Assembly: GCA_016183325.1 (NCBI GenBank)
Contig: JACPEV010000006.1
Span: 5,883-69,882 of the forward strand
Reading direction: 5' to 3'
DNA: 64,000 bases
Source: Candidatus Curtissbacteria bacterium
GTDB taxonomy: Bacteria > Patescibacteriota > Microgenomatia > Curtissbacterales > GWA2-41-24
Below the pieces are notes generated by a model. It was given only the letters and a program-made list of their open reading frames with translations. It was not told the DNA's origin and did no database searches. The position numbers were made by a program, and so were the translations under genes. Of this stretch, positions 45,454 through 57,413 are shown piece by piece. Position 1 is the first letter of the stretch. Each line of letters starts with the position of its first letter.

Positions 45454-45563
45454 AACTACCACGACTTAACAGTCGTGGTAGGTTCAGGCTACGCCTTCGG
45501 CGAGTACGTAATTGTTCAATTCACCCACGGGTAAAAACCCGTGGTACTTGCGAACAATTATAG
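45454..45563 (+). mobile_element. 110-bp structured repeat element (MITE-like), copy A. It supplies the ATG and first 17 codons of the downstream femAB-like ORF.
   Basis: Near-identical to 57086-57196 in the same orientation. Three internal hairpins: CCACGACTTAACAGTCGTGG, CACCCACGGGTAAAAACCCGTGGTA, and AATTGTTCAA..TTGAACAATT. Confidence 0.75.
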
Positions 45564-46597
45564 ATTTCAACAATCGGGAAGTAGAACATATTTTTCCTGA
45601 AATACCAAACCCACCAACAAAATTTTTCTCCGTCCGAGAATGGTATCATTCATATGTGAAATATCCCCCCCATCTTTTGCAATCACCGCAGTGGGCTCAA
45701 TTTCGTCAAAGGTGGGGTACGCGCGCGGTAAAAGTAGGCAAAGCATACCTTACCATTCACCCCGTGCCACTGCTTCCTTATACCGTTGGGTACATTCCAC
45801 GTGTTTTCCCCAAAGATATTGATTGGCAACTTCTCAAAAAAGAAGCAGCCAGGAATCGCTGCATCTTTGTCAAAATCGAACCCAATAGCGCCTCGTTTAA
45901 TCCGCCTTTTTCTTTTGACGTCAGGCCCGGCGAACGGATGTTTGCTCACGCCACGTATGTTATTGACCTACGAAAGACTGAAAAAGAATTGCTGACCGCA
46001 ATGCACTATAAAACTCGCTACAACATTGGTTTGGCCAAAAAAAGGGGAATAAAGATAAAAGTAGGCCATTCCAATAAAATGTTAACCGAATTTCTAGACC
46101 TTTTTCACAAAACGTCCTTGCGCCACAAAATTGCAATTCACCCTGACGCTTATTACAAAACACTCCTTGATGTTTTTAGCACAAAGGGCAATGCCCAAAT
46201 TATTACTGGCTACTACAACAGAAAGCCGTTGGCGTCAATGATGTTTGTCATCTTTAACGACACTATTTTTTACCCGTATGGTGGATCCACACTTCTTTAT
46301 AAAGAAAAAATGGCTCCATATTTAGTTATGTGGGAAGGAATATTGTTGGGGAAAAAACGTGGCTGTTTGTACTTTGACATGTGGAATTGTCTTCTGCCCG
46401 AACAAGAGAGTCCTTCTCACCCATGGTACGGATTTCACCGGTTTAAAAAAGGGTTTAACGGTGGACTACTTCGGTTCGCTGGAGCCTATGACGTAGTGTT
46501 CAATGATCCCCTTTACTCTCTTTTTACGACACTCAACCACTTACGTTGGGCAATTCTTAAAATCCTTTTGGCTCTAAGGAAAGTAACCAAACGATAA
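45512..46597 (+). CDS. FemAB-family peptidoglycan peptide-bridge aminoacyltransferase.
   Basis: FemABX landmarks SPQWAQFRQRWG, TVGYIPRV, KTRYNIGLAKKRGIKIKV, HPWYGFHRFKKGFNGGL. The N-terminus is encoded by the MITE, so the true start is uncertain. Confidence 0.6.
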   Translation: MFNSPTGKNPWYLRTIIDFNNREVEHIFPEIPNPPTKFFSVREWYHSYVKYPPHLLQSPQWAQFRQRWGTRAVKVGKAYLTIHPVPLLPYTVGYIPRVFPKDIDWQLLKKEAARNRCIFVKIEPNSASFNPPFSFDVRPGERMFAHATYVIDLRKTEKELLTAMHYKTRYNIGLAKKRGIKIKVGHSNKMLTEFLDLFHKTSLRHKIAIHPDAYYKTLLDVFSTKGNAQIITGYYNRKPLASMMFVIFNDTIFYPYGGSTLLYKEKMAPYLVMWEGILLGKKRGCLYFDMWNCLLPEQESPSHPWYGFHRFKKGFNGGLLRFAGAYDVVFNDPLYSLFTTLNHLRWAILKILLALRKVTKR

Positions 46598-47556
46598 AGC
46601 TTGTATCGTGACGCATGAACGGGAAACGCATAGGCGTCGGGAAACGTGATCACTTCTCCTCCAAAACCTTTTTTAAATACTGAAATTCCTGACCAAGGGT
46701 GTTTGGGTTTATCTTTTGGTGCAATTCCCCAAAAGTCAAATGCCTTGCAACCCTTTTGTTTTGCATTTTGAATAGCTGACCAAACCAAAAAATGCGCAGC
46801 TCCGATTTTTCTCCCATTCTCACTCGAAGCAGCATATAAATACGTCGCCGTACCACGATATTGAAGAATAATGGCTCCAGCAACAGGTATATCGCCACAG
46901 TAGGCAATAAATAATTTGGCAATTTTTTGCTCCGCAAGTTTTGTAAATTGTCTTCTTAAATAAGTTGACGATTGTAATAAAAACTTCTGCCTTTTCTCTG
47001 TTTCAAGAAGAAGCCTGGCAAAATCATTCCAGCGAGAAAGTGTGTTAAAAACTGAAATTGTCACGTTTTTTTTCATAGCTTGTTTAATAAGATATCGCGT
47101 TGATTTTCGAAAAGATCTAAATAGTATATCGGCGGACCGATTAAGAGATATAACAAGTGTGTGCTGAGGTTGAATAGTGTAGTTGTTTACAAAACCTTCC
47201 AAAAGATAGACCAACTCATTAAAAAATGACACGTTGTTTGGTTCGATGAAAAGAAAATCGGCGCCATTTTCTCGCGCTTTGGTTCTAAGAAAAGTGAGAA
47301 TTTCTTTTAACCCCTCTTTGTTACGTGCTAGCGGTCCGCGGGGACAGTAAAGAAAGGTAAAAAAACGTGACCGTACGATATACAGTTGTGCCGCAGCTTC
47401 TACACGTCGCCCCTCTTTCACCAAAATTCTGAAAGTTTCATTTTCAAGCTTTTTTTGGAATTCTCCCCATGCCCATGACTGAAGAAACGGGGGATCAGTG
47501 AATTGAGCAAGAACCTCATCCCACTGCTTTTCGCTGCGACATTCAACAACGTCCAT
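46513..47556 (-). CDS. FemAB-family aminoacyltransferase, second paralogue.
   Basis: FLQSWAWGEFQKKL, FLYCPRGPL, TRYLIKQAMKKNV, HPWSGISVFKKGFGGEV. Confidence 0.65.
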   Translation of the reverse strand: MDVVECRSEKQWDEVLAQFTDPPFLQSWAWGEFQKKLENETFRILVKEGRRVEAAAQLYIVRSRFFTFLYCPRGPLARNKEGLKEILTFLRTKARENGADFLFIEPNNVSFFNELVYLLEGFVNNYTIQPQHTLVISLNRSADILFRSFRKSTRYLIKQAMKKNVTISVFNTLSRWNDFARLLLETEKRQKFLLQSSTYLRRQFTKLAEQKIAKLFIAYCGDIPVAGAIILQYRGTATYLYAASSENGRKIGAAHFLVWSAIQNAKQKGCKAFDFWGIAPKDKPKHPWSGISVFKKGFGGEVITFPDAYAFPVHASRYKLYRLVTFLRAKRILRIAQRKWLSVVKRE

Positions 47557-56450: not shown

Positions 56451-56828
56451 TTGACAAGGCTTCGAAATCGCCCAACCGGCCTTGATGATCGTCGAGCCGT
56501 TGTTACATGGCGCAGAAGCAGTATATATCACCCACTCCAAGATTTAAGGCTCGTTAACTTTGCAAGAAGAGCTCATGATGGTGTGGAAGGCGAAGAGTTA
56601 CCTGAGCTTGTGCAAGACGCTCAGGCATGTTTCGTCAAAGACTTTGATTTGTATCTCGCGGGCTTCCCAAAAGAAGAAACGGAGATGTTCAGTCTATTTC
56701 AAGAGATATTTGACACTGGAACTTCCTTTGAGTGGCAAACCGACTTAGAGAGGGTTGAGGGACTTGAATACGCTTTTTCGCAGCTCGACAGAGAAAAAAT
56801 ACAACCTTGGGTTACACTAGAAAAATAG
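56451..56828 (+). CDS. Conserved small ORF, paralogue B of 50920-51300.
   Basis: About 85% nucleotide identity to copy A across about 510 bp, including the upstream GGAGGA(A/G)GAGTTTGAGCC junction motif. Confidence 0.3.
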   Translation: MTRLRNRPTGLDDRRAVVTWRRSSIYHPLQDLRLVNFARRAHDGVEGEELPELVQDAQACFVKDFDLYLAGFPKEETEMFSLFQEIFDTGTSFEWQTDLERVEGLEYAFSQLDREKIQPWVTLEK

Positions 56829-56885
56829 CGAGTATGTAATATTTTCTGCGCTTTTGGAATTTAGAAGTCAAAAATTCGGGGCTGT

Positions 56886-57413
56886 TTGCGCATCTACCTA
56901 ATTTGACTTAAAAACTCTGCCGGAGCAACAATTTGTATTCGGTTGTACCCACCCAATGTCAATAGATCCTTGTCTCCTGTTATCAGATAGTTACACTTGC
57001 CGACTACTGCAGTTTCCAGAACTTTATTATCGTCAGGATCTCTTAGATTAAAATCTCTACCCTGTAAAGGAACGATTTGAGAGATGAACTACCACGACTT
57101 AACAGTCGTGGTATCCTCAGGCTACGCCTTCGGCGAGTACGTAATTGTTCAATTCACCCACGGGTAAAAACCCGTGGTACTCTTGAACAATTATAGAAGA
57201 AATATAAGAAACCGTGCCATTTGCAGCATAAAGTGGGGTATCAAAATCAGAAACTAACTTTTCTTTTACTTCTTCAAGGATGAAGTCAGAGATTAGAGAT
57301 ACAATTTTTTGATCTTCAATTAAGTTTACTATCTTTGCTGGTTTTCCAGAAAAGTAGAGTGCGGAGAGCCAAACATTGGTATCATTTACCACTCTTGGAA
57401 TTTTTGGTACCAC
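56886..57413 (-). pseudogene. PIN-domain toxin gene (TIGR00305 type) split by insertion of the 110-bp MITE.
   Basis: The N-terminal half (MVPKIPRVVNDTNVWLSALYFSGKPAKIVNLIEDQKIVSLISDFILEEVKEK...) lies to the right of the MITE. The C-terminal half (DPDDNKVLETAVVGKCNYLITGDKDLLTL...) continues in frame-shifted form to its left (56886-57085). Confidence 0.6.
57086..57196 (+). mobile_element. 110-bp structured repeat element (MITE-like), copy B, inserted into a PIN-toxin gene.
   Basis: Near-identical to 45454-45563. Flanked on both sides by halves of one PIN ORF. Confidence 0.75.

Follow-up and report, generated by a model that had tools for sequence, protein, structure and literature searches.

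A dispersed 109-nt non-coding element, probably of the IS200/IS605 type, interrupts a PIN toxin gene in Candidatus Curtissbacteria

Palindrome-associated transposable elements (PATEs) are ends-only derivatives of IS200/IS605 insertion sequences such as IS608 and ISDra2 (PMC7290912). They carry no gene, have mutually similar subterminal hairpins, lack terminal inverted repeats and insert 3' of a fixed short motif without duplicating it. In IS608 the left end is cleaved at a distance of 19 nt on the 5' side of its hairpin, and the right end is cleaved inside the insertion sequence, 10 nt 3' of its hairpin. Guides of 4 nt, located directly 5' of the foot of either hairpin, pair with these two sites through the triplets C-3.G-35*G-9 and T-4.A-34*A-10 (PMC3201880). 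Here we describe an element with these likenesses in 64,000 nt of Candidatus Curtissbacteria DNA (contig JACPEV010000006.1 of assembly GCA_016183325.1; this whole stretch is called the window, and coordinates refer to it). The element is present twice in the window, as copy A in the spacer between a PMT_2-like and a femAB-like gene and as copy B within a PIN toxin gene. It is a real, dispersed, non-coding piece of mobile DNA. We consider it probable that it is a 109-nt non-autonomous, ends-only (PATE-like) element of the IS200/IS605 type and that a Y1 HUH transposase acting in trans moves it in single-stranded form.

Mobility is evidenced by copy B. Four intact PIN genes from independent assemblies (L033, L034, L036 and L039; 94% nucleotide identity) read TATATTTCTTCT directly followed by ATCTCTCAA, and at this very point the window has exactly 109 extra nt. 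Hence, copy B is a precise insertion that inactivates the PIN gene. There is no duplication beyond an AT dinucleotide, which could belong to either junction and is the sole uncertainty at the site; this 2-nt ambiguity is settled by the guide/cleavage register described below. The rejoined protein matches TIGR00305 in a single stretch over positions 1-115 of the 115 in the profile, with 83 bits against a cut-off of 29, and PIN_3 with 68.6 bits; taken alone, the N- and C-terminal halves match positions 1-49 and 72-115 of TIGR00305, respectively. Intact homologues reach 96% identity, one of them being annotated as Candidatus Curtissbacteria, and the pair of RHH and PIN genes recurs in the intact loci L033-L039. 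The sequence-only reading of this DNA had placed the repeat exactly between the two halves of a TIGR00305-type PIN frame and taken this for transposition into a toxin gene, and both points are borne out. Its length of 110 nt is corrected: instead of 110-112 nt, the insertion comprises 109 nt (57084-57192). The intact homologues read ...VSYISSISQ..., which is one residue longer than the excision of 112 nt yields, and the final 3 nt of the repeat (AGA on the plus strand, TCT on the strand of the PIN gene) are host DNA, present in the empty sites. The comparison of empty and filled sites covers one site, that in the PIN gene; excision in silico at the other 18 sites known to us restores no further split gene.

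The two copies share a block of 112 nt (45453-45564 and 57086-57197) in the same orientation, with 106 of the 112 positions identical and the six mismatches grouped in two blocks of 3 nt. Searches of the window with 20-nt sub-motifs, allowing up to 3 mismatches, find exactly two copies, compared with 0.00-0.02 expected by chance. On either strand the repeat folds into three hairpins far more stably than shuffled controls do, both as RNA (z from -6.3 to -8.5) and as single-stranded DNA (z from -6.6 to -8.2). A 27-codon open reading frame, which starts from the ATG of ATGAAC, loses its frame in five of the 19 copies of the family (L009, L012, L013, L014 and L022) with the nucleotides still conserved; the element is therefore not coding. 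A small protein was considered and rejected because of these frame breaks and because the changes in the hairpins are compensatory in nucleotides and not conservative in amino acids. Thus, the near-identical co-oriented pair, the three-hairpin fold and the lack of coding capacity, all noticed from the letters at the outset, stand.

Further copies, which the same reading had suggested looking for, were found in metagenomes. The scan of JGI metagenomes with an exact, non-palindromic 22-mer from the invariant core gave 28 loci, which represent 17 distinct insertion contexts (seven recurring in two or more metagenomes), the truncated locus L010 and an unrelated GC-rich locus (L032). Together with the two copies in the window the family comprises 19 copies. 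Their flanking genes are unrelated housekeeping and envelope genes, none of which recurs, and the lack of relation between the flanks extends to the very boundaries of the element. Copies other than B lie between genes, often filling the entire spacer, and are oriented about 50:50 relative to the neighbouring genes. Exact look-ups assign L007, L014/L023 and L027 to Candidatus Woykebacteria and the window to Candidatus Curtissbacteria. The copy number is low, 1-3 per genome or bin; the core matches once in an 846-kb contig and twice in a single bin. Logan contigs of two runs end exactly 30 nt inside the right-hand (plus-strand) end of copy A; the last nucleotides of L002 (4569-4598) and L004 (3954-3983) correspond to window positions 45535-45564. 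We infer from these breaks, as branches of a k=31 de Bruijn graph at the boundary, that at least one more copy with a copy-A-type end is present in the same samples, and that the window genome would hold at least three copies. The single match that the 20-mer of hairpin 1 has in GTDB genomes is a chance hairpin of an unrelated genome (L001); the search of viral contigs with hairpin 20-mers gave nothing, and literature searches yielded no description of this element or of any relative that targets TCTAT.

The truncated locus deserves a separate description. L010 (1085-1152), L040 (78-145), L041 (164-231) and L042 (111-178) contain an internal-deletion derivative of the element, which keeps the left end with its hairpin, the outer stem and the terminal TCAT and lacks both the middle and the right hairpin. 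The start codon of a host gene of 223 aa adjoins it without a gap; this gene is rare, with only three protein clusters in the database. The possibility that L010 is the left end of an autonomous element was rejected: the adjoining 223-aa frame on the same strand is a host gene with conserved synteny, and orthologues of this gene occur without the element.

The top strand of the element is the minus strand of the window, so that the left end of copy B is at 57192 and its right end at 57084 (Table 1). Read on this strand, all 19 copies have the same layout: variable flank, TCTAT, AATTGTTCAAGAGTA, the left hairpin with arms CCACGGGT and ACCCGTGG around TTTT, the middle hairpin, AGGATA, the right hairpin (CCAYnnnn, loop, nnnnRTGG), TAGTTCAT and again variable flank. 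The left-end sequence adjoining TCTAT is AATTGTTC; the element itself begins after TCTAT with AATTGTTCAAG, followed by AGTA and the left hairpin. All 19 copies have TCTAT 5' of the left end, and farther out nothing is conserved. At the opposite end, 16 copies have TAGTTCAT, and in 17 the final 4 nt are TCAT. We interpret TCTAT as the target motif because its TCT is host DNA and yet is conserved in every copy. The opposite assignment, with the window plus strand as the top strand, was rejected, since the conserved 3' AGA (TCT) is host DNA and is explained only by the model with a 5' target on the minus strand.

Table 1. Positions of the element, its parts and the adjacent genes in the window.
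Feature	Coordinates	Strand	Remark
Copy B, 109-nt inserted element	57084..57192	-	exactly these 109 nt are missing in four intact PIN genes
Copy B, target pentanucleotide TCTAT, host DNA 5' of the left end	57193..57197	-	TCT present in empty sites
Copy B, left-end hairpin core (IP_L-like), top strand CCACGGGT-TTTT-ACCCGTGG	57158..57177	-	15 nt from the proposed left cleavage site
Copy B, left guide-like AGTA, directly 5' of the left hairpin	57178..57181	-	pairs with left cleavage site (C_L) CTAT
Copy B, outer stem around the left hairpin, arms 57141-57152 and 57183-57194	57141..57194	-	97.8% of cells paired
Copy B, middle hairpin	57121..57138	-	family length 18, 27 or 38 nt; alignment columns 37-84
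Copy B, right-end hairpin core (IP_R-like), top strand CCACGACT-GTTA-AGTCGTGG	57092..57111	-	8 nt from the right end
Copy B, right guide-like GATA, 5' of the right hairpin core	57112..57115	-	pairs with right cleavage site (C_R) TCAT
Copy B, right cleavage-site-like TCAT, final 4 nt of the element	57084..57087	-	kept in 17/19 copies
Copy A, 109-nt element, spacer between PMT_2-like and femAB-like genes	45451..45559	-	
Copy A, target pentanucleotide TCTAT	45560..45564	-	conserved position in the family
PIN toxin gene, N-terminal part, GTG start at 57413	57193..57413	-	
PIN toxin gene, C-terminal part with stop codon	56894..57083	-	
RHH (CopG/ParD-like) antitoxin gene, upstream of and overlapping the split PIN gene	57382..57672	-	
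femAB-like gene, true extent, 313 aa, GTG start, no overlap with the element	45656..46597	+	

The target is conserved on one side only. The ends AATTGTTCAAG... and ...GGTAGTTCAT are not complementary, that is, terminal inverted repeats are lacking. The flanks of all 19 copies were compared for target-site duplications, as had been proposed earlier, and contain none, with at most the ambiguous AT at the PIN site. This makes the element different from classical bacterial miniature inverted-repeat transposable elements (MITEs; such as Correia/NEMIS and RUP, derived from DDE transposons). It resembles them in its length of about 100 nt, in its dispersal and mobilisation in trans, in being structured and non-coding and in being able to split a gene, but those elements end in inverted repeats and duplicate their target site (typically TA), and a classical MITE is rejected on the absence of both in the 19 copies.

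The fold is maintained across the family. In the 19-sequence alignment (A2) the proposed pairs form in 93.9% of cells, compared with 32-43% when the partners are slid by 1-3 columns. The outer stem is nearly invariant, and its terminal pairs extend into the target bases. In the right-end hairpin four of the ten pairs change on both sides (e.g., GC:9, AU:8, CG:2). Because the variable stem positions stay complementary, it is a folded single strand which is maintained, and not a duplex binding site. The cores of the two terminal hairpins are alike, with CCACGGGT/ACCCGTGG at the left end and CCAYnnnT/AnnnRTGG at the right end. Palindromic insertions of 9 or 20 nt lengthen the middle hairpin (A2 columns 37-72; L013 and L022; L005, L009, L016, L018, L019 and L025), and the 20-nt versions in L013 (GAGTC/GACTC) and L022 (ACGTC/GACGT) are compensatory to each other.

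The guides and cleavage sites proposed for the element follow the IS608 register. The register derived from PMC3201880 pairs C1 with G2, C2 with G1 and C4 with G4, with A at C3. With CTAT/AGTA for the left cleavage site and guide (C_L/G_L) and TCAT/GATA for the right ones (C_R/G_R), all three pairs are satisfied at both ends, and the two guides differ exactly where the two cleavage sites differ. One of six registers works; the rule holds fully in 15 of 19 copies, with a chance of about 3e-4 per register, and the exceptions are single mutated copies, copy A among them. The distance from the left cleavage site to its hairpin is 15 nt versus 19 nt in IS608, and that from the right hairpin to the end is 8 nt versus 10 nt, so the left spacing is the longer one, as in IS608. 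At the level of sequence, the element agrees with an ends-only IS200/IS605-type element in every feature that could be tested.

We suggest the following mechanism of transposition. A Y1 (HUH) transposase encoded elsewhere would bind the two similar subterminal hairpins on single-stranded DNA and cleave it 3' of CTAT at the left end and 3' of TCAT at the right end, both sites being located by pairing with the tetranucleotides 5' of the hairpins. The top strand would be excised as a circle and re-inserted 3' of another TCTAT, with host DNA neither duplicated nor lost. The enzyme, the single-stranded intermediate and the current activity of the element are inferred. Some features set it apart from the PATEs described so far. 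The PATE-like element of Halanaerobium has 271 nt (PMC7290912), compared with 109 nt here; the target is TCTAT, in contrast to TTAC or TTGAT; and our element has an outer stem of 10-12 bp around the left hairpin, a middle hairpin of variable length and hosts in the Candidate Phyla Radiation.

Several observations weigh against this mechanism. Neither Pfam searches of about 40 open reading frames in the window nor the about 420 kb of element-bearing or related DNA, nor the gene tables of further loci, revealed a Y1 transposase, a TnpB or another recombinase, so that the cognate transposase which the sequence-only reading had proposed to look for was found neither in the 64-kb window nor in these loci. 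Screens of the same 420 kb for Y1 and TnpB with motifs and phmmer returned noise only, which is a weak negative, as the TnpA queries were approximate. In the 420 kb we found no full-length element with these ends, and annotated plasmid and phage records show no similarity to the element. In both window copies the top strand is on the G-rich, gene-rich strand (GC skew is negative on the plus strand throughout), as expected for insertion into the lagging-strand template. Across the 19 sites, however, orientation relative to the leading strand fits in 12 of 19 when judged by coding strand and in 10 of 19 by GC skew, the metagenomic loci being too short for a clear bias, and wobble substitutions are strand-neutral (12 versus 10). 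The left-end domain is almost invariant, and this conservation is inflated by the exact 22-mer with which the copies were ascertained, being partly forced by the search pattern. The guide/cleavage match requires the hairpin foot to be set at the shared CCAYG core, and the right hairpin can be extended by 2 bp. Finally, the outer stem of 10-12 bp has no counterpart in the description of IS608 (PMC3201880).

We regard it as unlikely, though worth considering, that Curtissbacteria and Woykebacteria carry and exchange the element without a canonical Y1 transposase. It may then depend on an unrecognised or phage- or episome-borne enzyme, or may also serve a TnpB-like nuclease acting in trans as its minimal guide-RNA scaffold. 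If this were true, a variant mechanism would be at work, with functional roles for the outer stem and for the middle hairpin with its expansions.

A REP/BIME-like repeat (repetitive extragenic palindrome/bacterial interspersed mosaic element) is the nearest of the described alternatives, and we hold it to be improbable. Such a repeat would depend on a domesticated Y1 enzyme (RAYT/TnpA-REP), would spread rarely and would mainly benefit the host, for instance in the stability of mRNA or the structure of DNA. Each hairpin of our element is indeed a palindrome that follows a conserved tetranucleotide (AGTA or GATA), most copies are intergenic and often occupy the whole spacer, and handling by a Y1 HUH enzyme is presumed in both cases. 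REPs are also known to resemble the subterminal hairpins of IS200/IS605 (PMC3333891). However, REPs are units of 20-40 nt in high copy, with no fixed target and no defined ends, while the element is a fixed composite of 109 nt with distinct left and right ends, strictly flanked by TCTAT, is present in 1-3 copies per genome and in one case is precisely inserted inside a gene. No RAYT gene flanked by such units is present in the loci examined.

It is quite improbable that the repeat is a structured small RNA gene or an element acting at the RNA level, spreading via an RNA intermediate or maintained for an RNA function, for example as a guide-RNA scaffold for a TnpB-like nuclease in trans. The strong conserved structure with compensatory changes, the cUUCg-like loop of the middle hairpin on the plus strand and the report that PATEs often encode guide RNAs used in trans (PMC10055086) fit such a role. 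Against it, Rfam gives no match on either strand at gathering thresholds in the window, or around copy A even at E<=10; signals resembling promoters or terminators were found neither in the element nor next to it; the orientation relative to neighbouring genes shows no preference; and no TnpB or reverse transcriptase adjoins any copy. The host-side TCTAT and the precise insertion at the DNA level indicate DNA transposition instead. The proposal of the sequence-only reading, a MITE or a small structured RNA mobilised in trans, thus holds in part: the element is non-coding and must be mobilised in trans, but it is no MITE in the strict sense, and nothing here supports a small structured RNA. A cis-regulatory leader or terminator was rejected as well, since downstream genes lie about equally on either strand and promoter and terminator signals are absent.

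Movement of double-stranded DNA by a site-specific recombinase, such as an IS607-type serine transposase with crossover at the AT of both junctions, appears very improbable to us. The filled site AT-[107 nt]-AT and the empty site with a single AT fit a 2-bp crossover, and the lack of terminal inverted repeats is compatible with it. However, the variable stem positions stay complementary, which is needed for a folded single strand and not for a duplex site. The target is one-sided, with TCT 5' of the AT and a variable 3' side, unlike a dimer-bound site, and the IS608 guide/cleavage rule holds at both ends. No serine recombinase was found among the window frames searched with Pfam. An immobile intergenic regulatory or structural sequence, duplicated together with its surroundings, has next to no probability: the region of copy B is indeed a mosaic of duplicated segments, but these exclude the element, the flanks of the 19 copies share nothing up to the boundaries, and close relatives have empty sites.

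We therefore return to the IS200/IS605-type element and to copy A. Its right end is mutated: the guide and cleavage site are CCTA and TCGT, and the guide/cleavage rule fails there (nnY). The first of the two variable triplets between the copies is the position of the right guide; the second is found at -5 to -7 relative to the left hairpin and is not part of the 4-nt guide. Because both the right guide and the right cleavage site are mutated, copy A is predicted to be probably immobile; it is intergenic and has no part in the coding sequence of the femAB-like gene. The sequence-only reading had it donate an ATG and 17 codons to this gene, which does not hold. The mechanical open reading frame of 361 codons does start inside copy A, with TTG at 45512 and not with ATG. 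However, the NCBI protein that is 100% identical to the product has 313 aa, and its orthologues (55-63% identical), mostly of 313 aa, begin at or align to MKYP.HLLQS. This start corresponds to the GTG at 45656, 91 nt downstream of copy A. Since the orthologue N-termini, whose comparison had been proposed as a check, correspond to this GTG and thus place the start outside the element, it contributes no start codon to femAB, and its role as a start-codon donor is rejected. The sequence upstream of GTG 45656 is merely open. The mechanical frame is over-extended by 48 codons (45512-45655) and reads through part of the element, which is a trap for callers based on open reading frames.

Copy B is surrounded by duplicated segments with 89-99% identity (families D1-D5), which form a mosaic. 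The segment 56322-56832 resembles 50791-51304, 58066-58339 resembles 53140-53485, and 58545-59026 resembles 50067-50826. This mosaic (50067-53485 versus 56322-59026) lies in a stretch rich in toxin-antitoxin genes, which holds, besides the RHH gene and the split PIN gene, further PIN genes at 51965-52375 and 55538-55918 and a MazE/AbrB-like gene at 55918-56181. It could reflect cassette recombination or strain-level mixing in the assembly.

Other features of the window are separate from the element. A 108-aa frame (36977-37303, plus strand) matches the Pfam family bAvd-like (PF22296, E 2e-11), an accessory protein of diversity-generating retroelements. Short repeats with ATCGACCCCAAAA lie near it at 35830-39111 (families D9, D13 and D15), and no reverse transcriptase was identified there. 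An intergenic repeat of about 90-150 nt occurs in three copies (6515-6658, 8237-8376 and 10458-10605; families D6, D8 and D12; 62-98% identity), each adjoining a minus-strand gene, and is unrelated to the hairpin element. A GC-rich inverted repeat of 49 nt (22622-22670 and 40143-40191) has arms that are 94% complementary and 17.5 kb apart, in a genome of 40% GC. No tRNA genes were found in the 64-kb window.

Last but not least, the element is a known kind of mobile DNA in an under-explored host group, and it reveals no new mechanism. Its description corrects the over-long call of the femAB-like gene. The TCTAT target, the ends and the predicted guide/cleavage pairs ease the search for the cognate transposase and for more members of the family. 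The tiny genomes of the Candidate Phyla Radiation are rarely examined for mobile DNA, and the element provides these bacteria with a documented case of a transposable element that is active or was so recently, backed by the comparison with empty sites. Its insertion into the PIN gene is one route by which toxin-antitoxin modules are inactivated.

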